A stretch of 64,000 bases of DNA, from the NCBI RefSeq assembly GCF_024298765.1, contig NZ_CP101210.1. One strand, 5' to 3'. This document shows, piece after piece, positions 26,749 to 40,735 of the stretch; within the stretch, counting starts at the first letter, position 1; the number at the start of each line of letters is the position of its first letter. Both the position numbers and the translations under genes were made by a program. Below the pieces are notes generated by a model. It searched no databases. It saw nothing but the letters and a program-made list of their open reading frames with translations, and had not been told where the DNA came from. Source of the stretch: Escherichia coli. GTDB lineage: Bacteria; Pseudomonadota; Gammaproteobacteria; Enterobacterales; Enterobacteriaceae.

Positions 26749-26893
26749 GCGCATTCTCATTGCACCCAAATTTATTCTTCACAAAAATAACACTAGATTC
26801 TATTACGCGATCGATTATTTATTTCCTGAAAAACAAATAAAAAAATCCCCGCCAAATGGCAGGGATCTTAGATTCTGTGCTTTTAAGCAGAGA

Positions 26894-27106
26894 TTACAGG
26901 CTGGTTACGTTACCAGCTGCCGGGCCTTTAGCGCCGCTTTCGATGGTGAAGGACACTTTCTGACCTTCGTCCAGAGATTTGTAACCATCGTTCTGGATAG
27001 CAGAGAAGTGTACGAACACGTCTTTAGAGCCATCGTCAGGAGTGATGAAGCCGAAGCCTTTGTCAGCGTTGAACCATTTTACGATACCAGTCATTTTACC
27101 GGACAT
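26894..27106 (-). CDS. cspA: Major cold-shock protein CspA
   Basis: 70-aa [24 protein letters not shown], exact CspA sequence. Confidence 0.97.
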
Positions 27107-27266
27107 AGTGTATTACCTTTAATAATTAAGTGTGCCTTTCGGCGATATGGCGTGCTTTACAGATTTTGAAGCGTTAAAGGAATGTGCACTACGAGGGGTA
27201 TCAACGATAACTCTTGAAGGGACTTGCCTTACTACACTGCTTTAATGGTCTGTACGTCAAACCGTT
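27107..27266 (-). promoter_or_regulatory. cspA long 5' UTR (cold-box / thermosensor leader)
   Basis: About 160 nt between the conserved cspA start and upstream promoter-like AT-rich sequence; known long cspA leader. Confidence 0.5.
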
Positions 27267-28110: not shown

Positions 28111-28821
28111 ATGGCGACAGGAAAGTCCTGCTCTCGCTGGTTTGCGCCTCTTGCGGCGTTATTAATGGTAGTTAGCCTGAGTGGGTGTTTTGATAAAGAA
28201 GGCGATCAGCGTAAAGCGTTTATCGACTTCCTGCAGAATACAGTGATGCGTAGCGGTGAACGTCTACCAACCCTGACTGCCGATCAGAAAAAACAGTTTG
28301 GTCCTTTTGTCTCTGATTACGCGATTCTGTATGGTTATTCTCAGCAGGTGAATCAGGCGATGGATTCCGGTCTGCGCCCGGTTGTAGACAGCGTTAACGC
28401 AATTCGCGTACCGCAGGATTACGTTACGCAAAGCGGCCCACTGCGTGAAATGAACGGTTCTCTGGGCGTACTGGCGCAACAGCTGCAAAATGCGAAGTTG
28501 CAGGCCGATGCTGCGCACTCTGCGCTAAAACAGAGCGATGACCTGAAACCGGTCTTCGATCAGGCATTCACCAAAGTGGTAACGACGCCAGCTGATGCGT
28601 TGCAACCGTTGATTCCGGCGGCACAAACTTTCACGCAACAACTGGTGATGGTTGGAGACTACATTGCTCAGCAAGGTACTCAGGTGAGCTTTGTCGCAAA
28701 TGGCATCCAGTTCCCGACTTCGCAGCAGGCAAGTGAATATAACAAACTGATTGCGCCATTACCGGCACAACATCAGGCGTTTAATCAGGCCTGGACTACA
28801 GCAGTTACTGCAACCCAATAA
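28111..28821 (+). CDS. yiaF: DUF3053 lipoprotein
   Basis: ORF trimmed to MATGKSCSRWF start (236 aa); lipobox LSGC. Confidence 0.82.
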   Translation: MATGKSCSRWFAPLAALLMVVSLSGCFDKEGDQRKAFIDFLQNTVMRSGERLPTLTADQKKQFGPFVSDYAILYGYSQQVNQAMDSGLRPVVDSVNAIRVPQDYVTQSGPLREMNGSLGVLAQQLQNAKLQADAAHSALKQSDDLKPVFDQAFTKVVTTPADALQPLIPAAQTFTQQLVMVGDYIAQQGTQVSFVANGIQFPTSQQASEYNKLIAPLPAQHQAFNQAWTTAVTATQ

Positions 28822-28831
28822 AGAGTAAAAG

Positions 28832-28858
28832 CCCGAGCGATTATCGGGCTTTACTCCA
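28832..28858. terminator. Bidirectional hairpin between yiaF and ghrB
   Basis: aagcccgagcgattatcgggcttt between convergent stops. Confidence 0.5.
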
Positions 28859-28870
28859 CGCAGTCGCGGC

Positions 28871-29845
28871 TTAGTCCGCGACGTGCGGATTCACACAGTT
28901 CTTCTCAACCTTTCCTTGTAACGCATCAATCAAGTTATCCACGGCACAGGCGGCCATGCCATAACGCGTCTCATGAGTGGCAGATCCAATATGCGGTACT
29001 GCGACGACGTTGGCCATTGAGAGCAACGGCGAATCTACTGACAGTGGCTCTTGTTCGAAGACATCCAGCCCGGCAGCGTGAATTTCCCCTTTCTGCAATG
29101 CAGCAATCAGTGCATTTTCATCAACCACCGGGCCACGTCCGGCATTAATGAAAATGGCGGAGGATTTCATTTTGGCGAATTGTTCTGCGCCAAATAGATG
29201 ATACGTCTCATCAGTTAACGGCAGGATCAGGCAAACGAAATCTGACTCTTGTAACAGTGTATCCAAATCGCAGTAGCGGGCGTTGAAGCGTTCTTCTGCT
29301 TCTTTATGGTGGCGGCGCGCGTTATAGAGGATGGGCATGTTGAAGCCAAAGTGCGCACGTTGTGCCAGCGCCATGCCGATCCGTCCCATCCCGACAATGC
29401 CCAGTGTTTTATGGTGAACGTCAGTGCCGTACCAGTCCGGGCCTATGCTCGCGGTCCATTCGCCTGCTTTTACTCGTTCTGCTACCTCCACAACCCGACG
29501 AGCGGTAGACAATACCAGCGCCATCAGCGTATCGGCGACGGTTTCTGTTAATACGGTTGGCGTGTGCATCAGCAGAATTTTTCGGGCGGTAAGCGCATCG
29601 ACATCAAAATTGTCATAGCCTACGGAGATCGTTGATGTGGCACGCAGTTTCGGCATTTTTTCCAGCAATGCGGCATCAACATTCTCGTTTGAACCCAGTA
29701 AACCTTCAGCTTCGGCAAGAATTGCTGCATTTTGTTCGATGGTTTGTGGGCTGAGGTTTGCCACCTGGTGAACGGTGAAATGTTCTTGCAGGCGTTGCAG
29801 TAAATCATCAGGTAAGGCTTTGTAGAGGATAACGGACGGCTTCAT
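28871..29845 (-). CDS. ghrB: Glyoxylate/hydroxypyruvate reductase B (2-ketogluconate reductase)
   Basis: ORF trimmed to MKPSVILYK start (324 aa); D-2-hydroxyacid dehydrogenase fold. Confidence 0.9.
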
Positions 29846-30760: not shown

Positions 30761-33094
30761 TTGGCCAACTCATCCTCACGATATTCCGTTCTGACTGCCG
30801 CCCACTGGGGGCCTATGCTGGTTGAAACCGACGGCGAAACCGTGTTTAGCTCGCGTGGCGCGTTAGCCACAGGAATGGAAAACTCCTTGCAGAGCGCGGT
30901 TCGCGACCAGGTTCACAGCAATACGCGGGTGCGATTTCCAATGGTGCGCAAAGGCTTTCTTGCGTCACCGGAAAATCCGCAAGGCATTCGTGGGCAGGAT
31001 GAATTTGTTCGCGTGAGTTGGGATGAGGCGCTGGAGCTTATTCACCATCAACATAAACGCATTCGTGAGGCTTATGGTCCGGCATCGATTTTTGCTGGTT
31101 CCTACGGCTGGCGTTCAAACGGCGTGCTGCATAAGGCCTCGACATTATTACAACGCTATATGGCGCTGGCAGGCGGTTATACCGGGCATCTGGGGGATTA
31201 TTCGACCGGCGCGGCACAGGCGATCATGCCGTATGTCGTGGGTGGCAGCGAAGTTTATCAACAGCAAACCAGTTGGCCGCTGGTGCTGGAACATAGCGAT
31301 GTCGTGGTGCTGTGGAGTGCTAATCCACTCAATACGCTGAAAATTGCGTGGAATGCATCCGATGAGCAGGGGCTTTCTTACTTTTCCGCACTGCGTGACA
31401 GCGGGAAAAAGCTGATCTGCATTGATCCAATGCGATCGGAAACCGTCGATTTCTTTGGCGATAAAATGGAGTGGGTGGCACCGCACATGGGCACCGATGT
31501 TGCGCTGATGCTGGGGATCGCCCATACGCTGGTGGAAAATGGTTGGCACGACGAAGCGTTTCTGACGCGTTGCACCACAGGTTATGACGTCTTCGCCTCT
31601 TATTTGCTGGGCGAGAGTGACGGAATAGCGAAAACCGCCGAGTGGGCGGCAGAGATTTGTGGGGTTAACGCAGAGAAAATCCGCGAACTGGCGGCTATTT
31701 TCCACCAAAACACCACCATGCTGATGGCTGGCTGGGGAATGCAGCGCCAACAGTTTGGTGAACAAAAACACTGGATGATCGTCACGCTGGCGGCAATGTT
31801 GGGGCAAATCGGCACACCCGGCGGCGGTTTTGGTCTTTCTTACCATTTTGCCAATGGTGGTAACCCCACGCGCCGCGCTGCGGTGCTCTCTTCCATGCAG
31901 GGCAGCTTGCCGGGTGGCTGCGATGCGGTAGATAAAATCCCTGTTGCCCGCATTGTTGAAGCACTGGAAAACCCTGGTGGCGCATATCAACACAACGGTA
32001 TGGACCGACATTTCCCGGATATTCGTTTTATCTGGTGGGCGGGCGGTGCCAACTTTACTCATCATCAGGATACCAATCGCCTGATCCGTGCCTGGCAAAA
32101 ACCGGAGCTGGTGGTGATCTCTGAATGCTTCTGGACGGCTGCGGCGAAACACGCGGATATCGTTCTGCCTGCGACCACTTCGTTTGAGCGTATTGATCTC
32201 ACCATGACCGGCGATTACAGTAATCAGCATCTGGTGCCGATGAAGCAAGTGGTGCCTCCACGTTATGAAGCGCGTAATGATTTTGATGTCTTTGCCGAGT
32301 TGAGTGAACGTTGGGAGAAGGGCGGCTATGCGCGGTTTACGGAAGGAAAAAGTGAGCTGCAATGGCTGGAAACGTTTTATAACGTTGCCCGGCAGCGCGG
32401 GGCAAGCCAGCAGGTTGAATTGCCGCCATTTGCTGAGTTCTGGGAAGCCAACCAGTTAATTGAGATGCCGGAAAACCCGGACAGTGAGCGGTTTATTCGC
32501 TTCGCCGATTTTCGCCGCGATCCGCAGGCGCATCCATTAAAAACCGCCAGCGGTAAGATTGAAATCTTCTCGCAGCGTATTGCCGATTATGGTTACCCGG
32601 ATTGCCCTGGGCATCCGATGTGGCTGGAGCCGGATGAGTGGCAGGGCAATGCCGAACCAGAACAGTTGCAGGTACTTTCTGCCCATCCGGCGCACCGCCT
32701 GCACAGCCAACTGAATTACAGCTCTCTGCGCGAATTATACGCGGTGGCAAATCGTGAGCCTGTCACCATTCATCCTGACGATGCCCAGGCGCGCGGCATA
32801 CAAGATGGCGATATTGTTCGGTTGTGGAACGCACGCGGGCAAATTCTTGCCGGAGCGGTCATTAGCGAGGGAATTAAACCTGGCGTGATTTGTATTCATG
32901 AAGGGGCATGGCCGGATCTGGATTTAACCGCTGACGGTATTTGTAAAAACGGCGCGGTGAACGTTCTGACCAAAGATCTCCCCAGCTCGCGGCTGGGGAA
33001 TGGCTGTGCGGGTAATACGGCGCTGGCATGGCTGGAAAAATACAACGGTCCGGAACTGACACTTACAGCGTTTGAACCACCGGCCAGCTCATAA
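30761..33094 (+). CDS. bisC: Biotin sulfoxide reductase (molybdopterin oxidoreductase)
   Basis: 777-aa ORF starting at TTG ([10 protein letters not shown]). Confidence 0.93.
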
Positions 33095-33503
33095 TCCAGG
33101 TGGGTAGTTGGGTTTCATCCTGCCATGCGCAGTCGACAATGTGAAAACCCTGCGCATGGTAGAAATCTATCGCCGGTTGATTTTTTTGATAAACCTCCAG
33201 CAACAGATGGGGATGGCGCTGCTGCACATACTGCATTAGCGCCTTACCAATACCGCGTCTGACGGCCTTCGGTGCGACAAACATTGCTGCGAGGAATCGG
33301 CCTTCCATAATGCTGACAAAACCGAGAAGCTTACCGTCTTCTTCCCAGACCCAGTTTTGCGCGTTGGCAAGATAGGCATCCCGCACCAGCGGAATGCAAT
33401 CACGCCAGTAATTCGCTTTTATAAAGGGATGCCCCCAGGTTGTACTTTCCAGCCACAGTTCGAGGATCGCGGGGAGTTCTGAACGTTGCGCTTCCCGAAT
33501 CAT
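33063..33503 (-). CDS. yiaC: GNAT-family N-acetyltransferase
   Basis: 146-aa ORF with acetyltransferase motifs; 3' end overlaps bisC 3' end. Confidence 0.85.
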
Positions 33504-34063
33504 GGTTTATTTCCCGGATAGCAACAGCAGCCAACCACATGATCATTCACCAGCCCACATGCCTGCATAAAGGAGTAACAGATTGTGGTACCAACAAACT
33601 TAAAACCACGCTTTTTCAGGGCTTTAGATAGAGCGTCGGAGGCGGGCGTAGATGTAGGGATTTCGCTCAACGTTGTGGCTTGTGTCACCTGTGGTTGATG
33701 ATTGACAAACGACCAGACAAAGTCGGCAAACGGTTCGCCGTTCTGTTCCATTTGCAGGTACGCCCGCGCATTACCAATAATTGCCTGAATTTTCCCGCGA
33801 TGGCGGATAATCCCGGCGTCCTGTACCAGTCTTTCGACATCCTCTTCCTGCATTGCAGCCACCTTCACCGGATCGAACTGATGAAAGCTGGCGCGATAGT
33901 TTTCGCGTTTTTTGAGGACGGTGATCCACGATAATCCAGCCTGCTGCCCTTCAAGGCAGATCATTTCGAACAGTTTTTTACTGTCAGTTTCAGGCACGCC
34001 CCACTCATTATCATGGTAGGCAATATAAAGCGGGTCCTGACTCACCCAGCCGCAACGTTCCAT
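33500..34063 (-). CDS. tag: 3-methyladenine DNA glycosylase I
   Basis: ORF trimmed to MERCGWVSQDPLYIAYHDNEWG start (187 aa); start overlaps yiaC by 4 nt. Confidence 0.92.
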   Translation of the reverse strand: MERCGWVSQDPLYIAYHDNEWGVPETDSKKLFEMICLEGQQAGLSWITVLKKRENYRASFHQFDPVKVAAMQEEDVERLVQDAGIIRHRGKIQAIIGNARAYLQMEQNGEPFADFVWSFVNHQPQVTQATTLSEIPTSTPASDALSKALKKRGFKFVGTTICYSFMQACGLVNDHVVGCCCYPGNKP

Positions 34064-38462: not shown

Positions 38463-38539
<77 letters not shown>

Positions 38540-38632: not shown

Positions 38633-39037
38633 GTGATGATGACTGAGTTCAAACGCACCCAACGTGATTATCCTCTATCCTTTAAAATAGCTGTTGTTGA
38701 GCAGGTTGAAAAAGGCGAGATGACCTATAAACAGGCCCAGCAGCGGTATGGCATTCAGGGGCGCTCCACCGTTCTTGTCTGGTTACGTAAATATGGCCGG
38801 CTTGACTGGAGTCCTGGACTTCCTGACCTGGTGAAGAGGAAACTGCCTGTGACTCAGACAACTATCCCGCTCACACCCGAGCAAAGAATCAGGGAACTTG
38901 AAGCGCAGCTTGAGCTGGCGAACCAGAAAGCTGAGTTTTTTGAGTCAGTTATCAATGTCCTTAAAAATGATTACGGGGTGAGTATCGTAAAAAAGCGGCC
39001 CGGCAAGTCCTCGCGCAAAGTCCGGCCCCCAAAATAA
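38633..39037 (+). CDS. IS3-family transposase OrfA (HTH)
   Basis: 134-aa ORF with HTH region and leucine-zipper-like C-terminus; slippery A_AAA_AAG near 38986. Confidence 0.85.
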   Translation: MMMTEFKRTQRDYPLSFKIAVVEQVEKGEMTYKQAQQRYGIQGRSTVLVWLRKYGRLDWSPGLPDLVKRKLPVTQTTIPLTPEQRIRELEAQLELANQKAEFFESVINVLKNDYGVSIVKKRPGKSSRKVRPPK

Positions 39038-39039
39038 CT

Positions 39040-39891
39040 GTGACGCGTGCATGTCTGTTCCTGGGACACAGCAGACAGGCATGGTATCAGGACAACACAA
39101 GGCGCAGAAAACGGCAGGAACATCATGCTCAGGTTCTTGATTTTGTTGCCCGTGTCAGATGTCGTCAGCCCCGAATCGGTGCGCGTAAGCTGCACTATCT
39201 GCTGAACACTCAGGCCGATAAAAGGCTGAATATCGGGCGAGACCGCCTGTTTAACCTGCTCGATGAATACCGACTCCTGGTGCCAGTAAAACGGGCATAT
39301 CACAAAACTACCAACAGTCATCATCGCTTCTACCGACATCCAAACCTGCTTAAACCAGGCCCTGAACAGGTTACCGCTCTTGAACCAGAACAGGTCTGGG
39401 TCGCCGATATTACTTACCTTCCACTGCGCAATGGTACGGCCTATCTGAGTCTGGTCACCGATGCCTGCTCCAGAAAAATTATGGGCTACCATGTTGGGGA
39501 AAACCTGCAGACAGAAAATGTGGTAAAAGCGTTCAGACAGGCGCTGAGGCTGAGAAAAACGACGAGTCCCCTGGTGCATCATTCTGACAGGGGGCTGCAA
39601 TACTGTTCAGCGCTCTATCAGTCAGTTCATGAAAGAAATGGAATAACCTGTTCAATGACGGATGGTTATGACTGCTACCAGAACGCACTGGCTGAGCGAA
39701 TAAACGGTATCCTGAAAAATGAGTTTTTACTCTCGCGTCCTGCAGACCTGGCGCAGGCCCGGGAAATGGTCAAAGAGTCCGTGGCAATTTATAACCATGA
39801 GCGGCCACATCTGGCTCTGAAATACAAAACACCCGATGACGTTCATCAGGCGTTTTACAGACAGAAAAGTGTCAACGTATATCAGGACTAG
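39040..39891 (+). CDS. IS3-family transposase OrfB (DDE integrase core)
   Basis: 283-aa ORF in the -1 frame relative to orfA; rve-type catalytic residues (WVADITY, HSDRGLQY, ERING). Confidence 0.85.
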   Translation: MTRACLFLGHSRQAWYQDNTRRRKRQEHHAQVLDFVARVRCRQPRIGARKLHYLLNTQADKRLNIGRDRLFNLLDEYRLLVPVKRAYHKTTNSHHRFYRHPNLLKPGPEQVTALEPEQVWVADITYLPLRNGTAYLSLVTDACSRKIMGYHVGENLQTENVVKAFRQALRLRKTTSPLVHHSDRGLQYCSALYQSVHERNGITCSMTDGYDCYQNALAERINGILKNEFLLSRPADLAQAREMVKESVAIYNHERPHLALKYKTPDDVHQAFYRQKSVNVYQD

Positions 39892-39897
39892 TCATGT

Positions 39898-40111
39898 AGC
39901 CTATGAGGATGAGAACCTCCGGGGGCAGGGAGGTTCGACTCGAGCGAAGCGAGAGAACGTTGCGCCAGCAACGGCCCGCAGGGCGAGCCACGAAGTGGCG
40001 AGTAATCCTCTATCACCGACCAAATTCGAAAAGCCTGCTCAACGAGCAGGCTTTTTTGCATCTGTAGCCCATGAGGATGAGAACCTCCGGGGGCGGGGAG
40101 GTTCGACTCGA
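39898..40111 (+). repeat. att-like direct repeat: second copy of proK 3' end plus terminator, with two copies of a 46-bp element
   Basis: aatcctctatcaccgacca plus terminator at about 40004-40058 duplicates 38521-38576; agccYatgaggatgagaacctccgggggcRgggaggttcgactcga at 39898-39943 and 40066-40111. Confidence 0.7.
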
Positions 40112-40190
40112 CGTAGGCCTGATAAGACGCGCCAGCGTCGCATCAGGCAAATGTACCGGCCCATTGTCGGATTCGGCGCGACCGCCTTAT
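40112..40190. repeat. REP palindromic unit(s)
   Basis: gtaggcctgataagacgcgccagcgtcgcatcaggc, canonical E. coli REP. Confidence 0.7.
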
Positions 40191-40735
40191 CCGATCTACA
40201 CACCACACATTTCCCTGCCAAATTTGCGCCCCATATCTCACTATCCATTAACGGATTTGTGACAGAAACCATTGTCTTTTTTTATATTTGCTTAAATCTT
40301 TTTTTGCGTTACTTATGGCTGGCGCTGGCATTTTCCGCTGTGCGTTTTAGCGTTCATGGTATTAATCGCTCAGATATCCACCTTTACCTCAGATTTTTTT
40401 CATTAAATGCATAAAACTTAATCACCAAATGTTGCTAAATATTAAGCTGATTGTTCTGGTTGTGTTGGCGTAGCACAAATTTCTCTGCTGCAAATAGCTG
40501 TTTGAAGTTTTTTTAATCTTTGTTTGTGGATTCTCACCGTTGGTGTAAATCCCGGTTGGCTGTATTGACGTTTTCACATTCTGTTGACAGATTGTAGGTC
40601 ACGAGGGGCATTTTATGGAGGATCCGCACTGTTACACTGATGTTAATTAGTACGGCATCCCCACCTCATAACGTTGACCCGACCGGGCAAAAAACAAAAA
40701 AGGTCAGGCAGCGACAACCCACTGCAAAGGGTTAA

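Follow-up and report, generated by a model that had tools for sequence, protein, structure and literature searches.

Convergent genes that share coding sequence (CDS) at their 3' ends are a documented class in Escherichia coli, in which Huvet and Stumpf (2014, PMC4161906) found 75 convergent overlapping pairs. The 165 convergent excludons that the ExcludonFinder study (PMC12288877) gives for MG1655 include yiaC-bisC, and a region of termination by Rho was mapped to MG1655 3714344 (+), on the strand antisense to bisC, by Adams et al. (2021, PMC7815308, Supplementary file 2). The subject here is this same pair as it occurs in a stretch of 64,000 nt of E. coli chromosomal DNA (NCBI RefSeq assembly GCF_024298765.1, contig NZ_CP101210.1), referred to below as the window, in which the CDSs of bisC and yiaC overlap by 32 bp (33063..33094, both strands). 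The overlap is already known, both from the reference annotation and from the published excludon list. The analysis described here shows that it is genuine and old, and indicates that it is most likely a side effect of gene packing that is tolerated, not a means of regulation. The details added, namely a fixed bisC stop opposite a mobile yiaC stop, a complementary constraint on the two proteins, an obligatory core of 14 bp, and a link to the Rho region, are tidy and unsurprising.

The bisC gene encodes a biotin sulfoxide/S-N-oxide molybdoenzyme of 777 residues and lies at 30761..33094 on the + strand, from a TTG start to a TAA stop at 33092-33094, as given by the list of open reading frames (ORFs), RefSeq, Pfam, and collinearity with PDB entries. 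On the - strand, yiaC (33063..33503, with its TAA stop at 33063-33065) encodes a GNAT lysine acyltransferase of 146 residues, for which the evidence is the ORF list, RefSeq, Pfam, an AlphaFold2 (AF2) model, and a published function. The overlap between them, which was defined from the ORF list, the sequence and a cross-lineage alignment, contains L768 (two nucleotides only) to S777 plus the stop of bisC, and I137 (two nucleotides only) to L146 plus the stop of yiaC. Each stop is embedded in the other gene, that of bisC within the yiaC codons I137/M138 and that of yiaC within the bisC codons L768/T769. Positions 1, 2, and 3 of the bisC codons face positions 1, 3, and 2, respectively, of the yiaC codons, and there is no free wobble position within the overlap in either gene. 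Upstream of yiaC, the tag CDS (33500..34063, -) overlaps the yiaC start by 4 bp (ATGA, 33500..33503), and yiaC has zero intergenic DNA on both sides.

The first-pass annotation of this DNA, which was made from the letters and the ORF list, had given the names, coordinates, and strands of the two genes and an overlap of 32 bp, or about ten codons; all of these agree with the ORF list and with RefSeq. The RefSeq start of bisC is a TTG (window 30761), and automated calls of BisC differ in length, with 804 residues in Kosakonia and 759 in Enterobacter, so the start of bisC is less certain than its stop.

An identical overlap is present in the RefSeq annotation of strain 104 (NZ_CP029164.1), which is 100% identical to the window over the region tested, in that of K-12 MG1655 (yiaC 3713652..3714092, bisC 3714061..3716394), and in those of five more E. 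coli strains picked across the range of identity. Of 5426 complete E. coli genomes, 5420 contain a match to a 60-bp junction probe, with 100% identity in 3524 and 95–99% in the others. Within the window, eight convergent pairs are annotated, and only bisC/yiaC has overlapping CDSs, the other pairs being separated by gaps of 29–187 bp. The two are real genes on opposite strands, with reciprocally embedded stops and conserved orthologous loci, and the pair belongs to the class of convergent overlapping CDSs. By our own estimate, ten antisense codons would remain open by chance in about 60% of cases ((61/64)^10). The sequence pattern of the overlap is itself not beyond chance; the non-random part is its conservation in 15 lineages of the Enterobacteriaceae.

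These lineages are E. coli, four other Escherichia, E. albertii, Salmonella, Citrobacter amalonaticus, a Raoultella-like contig, Enterobacter ludwigii, Kosakonia, Lelliottia, Pseudescherichia, an Enterobacteriaceae isolate, and a metagenomic contig. Scanning genome contigs for YiaC returned five Escherichia loci only, and the other genera were reached through a protein search followed by contig look-ups. In 15/15 lineages, tag-yiaC opposes bisC and the CDSs overlap. Both frames are conserved with their tails intact, at identities of 54–99% for YiaC and 83–95% for BisC. The bisC stop is at a constant distance from the yiaC start in all 15 and lies within the codons for I137-M138 of YiaC: the sequence ATT or ATC followed by ATG is, on the opposite strand, the TAA or TGA stop of bisC. 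The other junction of yiaC, that with tag, also varies in its length of overlap: E. whittamii has 1 bp, E. coli and E. albertii have 4 bp (ATGA), and other genera have 20–23 bp; in these other genera, Tag has 192–193 residues, as opposed to 187.

The yiaC stop, in contrast to the fixed bisC stop, shifts in frame between lineages, which gives overlaps of 23, 32, or 38 bp. The 32-bp form, with a TAA or TGA stop, is found in the majority of lineages. In the 23-bp form, YiaC has 143 residues due to the change of Q144 from CAA to TAA, while the 38-bp form, with a YiaC of 148 residues, is found in Kosakonia and Lelliottia. Opposite the middle base of the yiaC stop lies the third position of codon L768 in bisC: when this codon is CTT, the yiaC stop is TAA, when it is CTC, the stop is TGA, and when it is CTG, the stop is replaced by TCA (Ser) and the frame closes two codons later. 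These three alternatives are synonymous in bisC. In general, a shift of the yiaC stop costs bisC no more than a synonymous or mild change. Computation of the effect of stop loss in E. coli showed that yiaC would gain 62 codons and bisC 55.

An important question is whether both C-termini are real. The first-pass annotation had named the condition under which the overlap would disappear, namely that the true C-terminus of one of the proteins is shorter than the ORF call, as would be the case if yiaC were a spurious or degenerate ORF. No support for such an annotation artefact was found, and a single assembly, OY856296 (see below), shows different ends. The stops are set by the reading frames, and frames and stops are conserved across genera with intact tails. 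In the case of BisC, the Pfam domains are Molybdopterin, Molydop_binding, and Molybdopterin_N, and the protein is collinear with dimethyl sulfoxide (DMSO) reductases and TorZ in the PDB from residue 7–10 to residue 774–775 of 777. Its last 120 residues align with the C-termini of solved DMSO reductase, TorA, and TorZ; the segments aligned to the tail are EKYTGPAVTLTGFVAPK in DMSO reductase, where it stops three residues short of the end of the chain, EKYNGTVEQVTAFNGPV in TorA, and EKFIGVAPEVTVFKQP in TorZ. Since the tail can be aligned to the C-termini of DMSO and trimethylamine N-oxide reductases, it is not an extension arising from stop loss; the part of BisC in the overlap is the ancestral C-terminus of the family, of typical length and sequence.

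In the case of YiaC, the Pfam domain is Acetyltransf_1 (GNAT), and the protein aligns with YjaB (2kcw, 147 residues) through residue 134; its end is of normal GNAT length and is not a stop-loss extension either. YiaC has published activities as a lysine acetyltransferase and a lactylase (PMC6199490, PMC9636275). An AF2 model built with an input of 26 orthologues has a predicted local distance difference test score (pLDDT) of 94.9, and in this model the final beta-strand comprises residues 133–140 (LPTWIMSW), while residues 141–146 are of low confidence and residues 144–146 are below 50. The fold needs the residues up to 140, and the last strand lies partly in the overlap. That one C-terminus is truly shorter is therefore excluded as far as sequence evidence reaches, and an artefact of annotation would be an exceedingly improbable explanation of the overlap.

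The predicted strand also sets a minimum for the overlap. M138, S139, and W140, together with two bases of I137, are inside it, and since the strand extends over the last three bisC codons and the stop, an overlap of at least 14 bp is forced: on the model, a YiaC protein cut right after W140 would still overlap bisC by 14 bp. A corresponding AF2 model of BisC, made with 12 close orthologues, had a mean pLDDT of 38 and was not usable for deciding whether the BisC tail is ordered or disordered.

Two departures from the usual junction were examined. In E. coli OY856296, YiaC has 193 residues and BisC 722, as the result of two identical TA insertions that convert GGCC into GGTACC (equivalent to window ~33082 and ~32889). 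Long YiaC variants (193–202 residues) had been considered as possible alleles that arose by natural stop loss; OY856296, the variant looked at, is most probably an artefact of assembly, and its TA insertions are probably a systematic error of sequencing or polishing. An artefact of this type may be behind the clusters of 193–202-residue 'YiaC' in the protein database. The loss of bisC in E. coli BE104 had similarly been considered as a natural deletion; it is an engineered Datsenko-Wanner scar containing FRT (equivalent to window 30914..33054). Of bisC, 153 nt remain at the 5' end and 40 nt at the 3' end; the 40 nt were retained deliberately, and yiaC is left intact, with its whole CDS plus 8 nt preserved.

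How, then, can 32 bp without a free wobble position encode two conserved proteins? The alignment of orthologues shows that in YiaC, P134, T135, W136, M138, and W140 are invariant, while positions 139 and 141–146 are variable. The invariant residues of BisC are L768, T769, A770, F771, P773, and P774, with A775 close to invariant and 776–777 variable (S or N, then S, P, or A). When the alignments and the AF2 model are combined, the overlap falls into two parts: at 33084..33094 (both strands), M138-S139-W140 of YiaC, preceded by part of I137, faces the variable end of BisC (776–777 and the stop), and at 33063..33083 (both strands), the low-confidence tail of YiaC (141–146) and its stop face the conserved BisC motif L-T-A-F-D/E-P-P-A. 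The constrained end of each protein thus lies opposite the variable tail of the other, and it is because of this that double coding is tolerated.

Two observations illustrate the arrangement. Firstly, the apparent conservation of Q144-T145 in YiaC is hitch-hiking on A770-F771 of BisC. Secondly, the E. coli-specific BisC substitution D772E, which is conservative, and the substitution D143V in the YiaC tail, which is radical, are one and the same nucleotide change. At the level of the nucleotides, 23 of the 32 columns in the overlap are invariant, and the mean pairwise difference is 0.137 in the overlap as compared to 0.257 in the flank coding for yiaC only and 0.204 in the flank coding for bisC only. 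The overlap is the 32-nt stretch with the lowest local divergence, which matches the prediction of dual coding.

A different explanation for the conservation would be that the pair is a functional excludon, in which bisC and tag-yiaC repress each other, either through collision of RNA polymerases or because RNase III cuts the duplex of their 3' ends, so that a cell would express either the enzyme of sulfoxide repair or the operon for DNA repair and acyl transfer. Consistent with this, the MG1655 excludome includes yiaC-bisC, with detection in at least 50% of the 58 transcriptomes (PMC12288877), the tail-to-tail arrangement is kept in every lineage of Enterobacteriaceae examined, the yiaC-strand transcript reaches about 250 nt into bisC, which makes for a long potential duplex, and there is a precedent in E. 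coli, mscL-arfA (PMC10070815). However, since the 3' mRNA ends of genes with overlapping CDSs are necessarily complementary, bisC and yiaC count as a convergent excludon on that ground; such a listing is automatic for any expressed pair with overlapping CDSs and adds no functional evidence. Moreover, dual coding fully accounts for the conservation, for the junction is inseparable without damage to one of the proteins, the reads from the tag-yiaC strand are low, Rho already limits read-through, and the genes are without a known functional link. A functional excludon is, on this balance, unlikely.

Reads from the tag-yiaC strand being low, head-on encounters between polymerases should be infrequent. 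We infer from these low counts that polymerase collisions and the effects of double-stranded RNA are probably minor. The first-pass annotation had held that convergent transcription could lead to interference between the two genes; any such interference is probably weak.

The absence of DNA between the stops also bears on where transcription ends. The first-pass annotation had held that there is no room for a terminator, which is right for intergenic DNA, as none exists between the stops; any terminator must in consequence sit within the partner gene. Might intrinsic terminators embedded in the partner CDSs keep the overlap of the transcripts to a minimum? This would require a terminator for yiaC at 33000..32978 (-) and one for bisC either at 33120..33162 (+) or at a run of seven T near 33181. 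A scan of the region with a terminator consensus found three terminator-like sites, which is no excess over the 2.6 +/- 1.6 found in shuffled sequence.

The candidate for yiaC is a terminator-like hairpin at 32978..33000 (-), inside bisC and 63 nt past the yiaC stop, in which nine pairs (six of them GC) are followed by AUCUUUGGUC, and it is present in both the minimum free energy and the centroid folds. Across ten lineages, however, this hairpin shows one compensatory change and several breaks, with a consensus of -3.6 kcal/mol, which is not convincing covariation; its U-tract is poor, and no Term-seq 3' end is located there, a Rho region being mapped instead. It was rejected as the yiaC terminator. 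The candidate for bisC is a hairpin of 13 pairs at 33120..33162 (+), downstream of the bisC stop and inside antisense yiaC, and this hairpin is specific to the strain of the window: it has no U-tract, and three mismatches break the K-12 version. It was likewise rejected as a terminator and is probably incidental.

The Term-seq tables of PMC7815308, a single data set covering three conditions, contain no dominant 3' end in MG1655 3713300-3714499. A search of Rfam at the junction returned no RNA family, and neither yiaC nor bisC is entered in the TERMITe supplements. The marks of a bidirectional intrinsic terminator, which are a GC-rich stem-loop with A- and U-tracts between the stops and 3' ends on both strands, are absent from the junction. 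No supported intrinsic terminator was found there, and termination by embedded intrinsic terminators is quite unlikely.

The termination that has been mapped on the yiaC strand is Rho-dependent only and takes place 252 nt into antisense bisC (PMC7815308). The reads upstream and downstream of 3714344 were 90/23 in the untreated sample and 60/112 with bicyclomycin (PMC7815308; Rho score 7.3, p = 5.5e-14). The window is collinear with K-12 here, without indels, and the equivalent position in the window is 32811 (-), 252 nt past the yiaC stop. Between the stop and this position, the continuation of the tag-yiaC transcript would be untranslated and antisense to bisC, and this C-rich, G-poor stretch (32803..33062, -) is a candidate region for the loading of Rho. 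The ratio of C to G on the yiaC strand, in segments of 80 nt from +1 to +260 past the stop, is 1.15–1.93 (mostly 1.4–1.9) and beyond this is 0.6–0.85; the background for the whole of antisense bisC is 1.21. A C-rich, G-poor untranslated stretch is thus found upstream of the Rho region on the yiaC strand, and its composition fits what would be expected of a Rho loading region. For the bisC strand, Rho is the likely agent of termination as well.

Analogous Rho regions appear in the table of PMC7815308 antisense to dppF (MG1655 3702288 +) and antisense to yiaF (3718677 +), and both genes are in the window. The pairs to which they belong, dppF/yhjV (window ~46607..46637) and yiaF/ghrB (28821..28871), are convergent, their genes being 29 and 49 bp apart, respectively. 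The Rho regions in question would correspond to read-through from yhjV and from ghrB. The published list of excludons (PMC12288877) includes yhjV-dppF as well.

Taken together, the findings make the following account the most likely one, in which the overlap is a tolerated result of packing. The yiaC gene is wedged between tag and bisC, and at least 14 bp of the overlap is forced by strand 133–140 of YiaC; the remainder corresponds to a floppy six-residue tail of YiaC that is the antisense of the conserved BisC LTAF(D/E)PPA. Transcripts of tag-yiaC would continue, untranslated, into antisense bisC, where, on the published data, Rho would stop them about 250 nt downstream, after the C-rich, G-poor stretch.

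Several points weigh against this account. The Rho call comes from a single data set with low read counts (the 90/23 and 60/112 given above), and the literature consulted here documents no 3' end for transcripts of bisC. A disorder of the BisC tail is suggested by its sequence variability. Finally, the deep conservation of the overlap might also reflect a selection for regulatory coupling, which is inseparable here from the dual-coding constraint. A selected coupling of this sort, in which read-through from tag-yiaC, tuned by Rho, and the obligatory 3' duplex set the levels of BisC, or the reverse, seems very unlikely; if true, it would link the repair of methionine and biotin sulfoxides to an operon for DNA repair and protein acylation across the Enterobacteriaceae.

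Elsewhere in the window, some other features deserve mention. Four tandem type I toxin-antitoxin modules, made up of four CDSs for Ldr toxins and four antitoxin RNAs (rdlD) spaced ~483 bp apart, occupy 48270..49940; in K-12, the corresponding site has one ldrD/rdlD. A transposase of the IS3 family, with a programmed frameshift (38636..39891), is located just downstream of tRNA-Pro (38463..38539) and adjoins a match to RtT RNA (39889..40022), with a match to naRNA4 on the other strand (40116..40196). The CDS named 'cspE' by the Prokaryotic Genome Annotation Pipeline (26894..27106) lies under a full-length match to the Rfam cspA thermoregulator (501 bits; 26839..27266); by K-12 gene order, the 'cspE' of the strain 104 record is cspA, and the name looks wrong. 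Lastly, in the strain of the window the annotation gives bcsQ (53935..54687) as a pseudogene that is interrupted by a stop codon, which resembles the known K-12 bcsQ defect.

The junction of bisC and yiaC is a matter of ordinary gene packing and carries little weight for biology at large. It is nonetheless a clean textbook case of tolerated coding on two strands, in which constrained ends lie opposite tails that are predicted to be dispensable. It also carries a practical warning, relevant to studies of acetylation and lactylation by YiaC: the deletion or tagging of either bisC or yiaC touches the partner, and the scar in BE104 is an example of the precaution that this calls for.

How does the pair compare with systems already described? 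Like the convergent overlapping pairs of Huvet and Stumpf (PMC4161906), it has a short overlap, each stop is inside the other CDS, and the overlap is more conserved than the flanks; its phase (length mod 3 = 2) is the one most commonly reported for convergent overlaps of more than 4 nt. It differs from them in no essential respect. Its length exceeds the 4 nt that are very common among convergent overlaps, and it is not a simple drift of stops, at least 14 bp being forced by structured or conserved ends on both sides. Like excludons, it has overlapping 3' mRNA ends and is listed in the MG1655 excludome. In characterised excludons such as mscL-arfA, an RNase III-dependent antisense effect on the partner has been demonstrated (PMC10070815), whereas the overlap of the bisC and yiaC transcripts is a trivial result of the CDS overlap. 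Wang et al. (bioRxiv 10.1101/2022.10.23.513370) described pairs with bidirectional terminators or colliding RNA polymerases, which, like bisC/yiaC, are convergent and must prevent read-through into the partner. Unlike these, bisC/yiaC is without an intergenic stem-loop, its hairpins are coding, not conserved, and without mapped 3' ends, and on the yiaC strand termination depends on Rho. In this last respect, and for the yiaC strand only, the locus resembles the Rho-terminated antisense read-through of Adams et al. (PMC7815308), in that a bicyclomycin-sensitive region is located more than 50 nt past the stop, after a C-rich, G-poor stretch.

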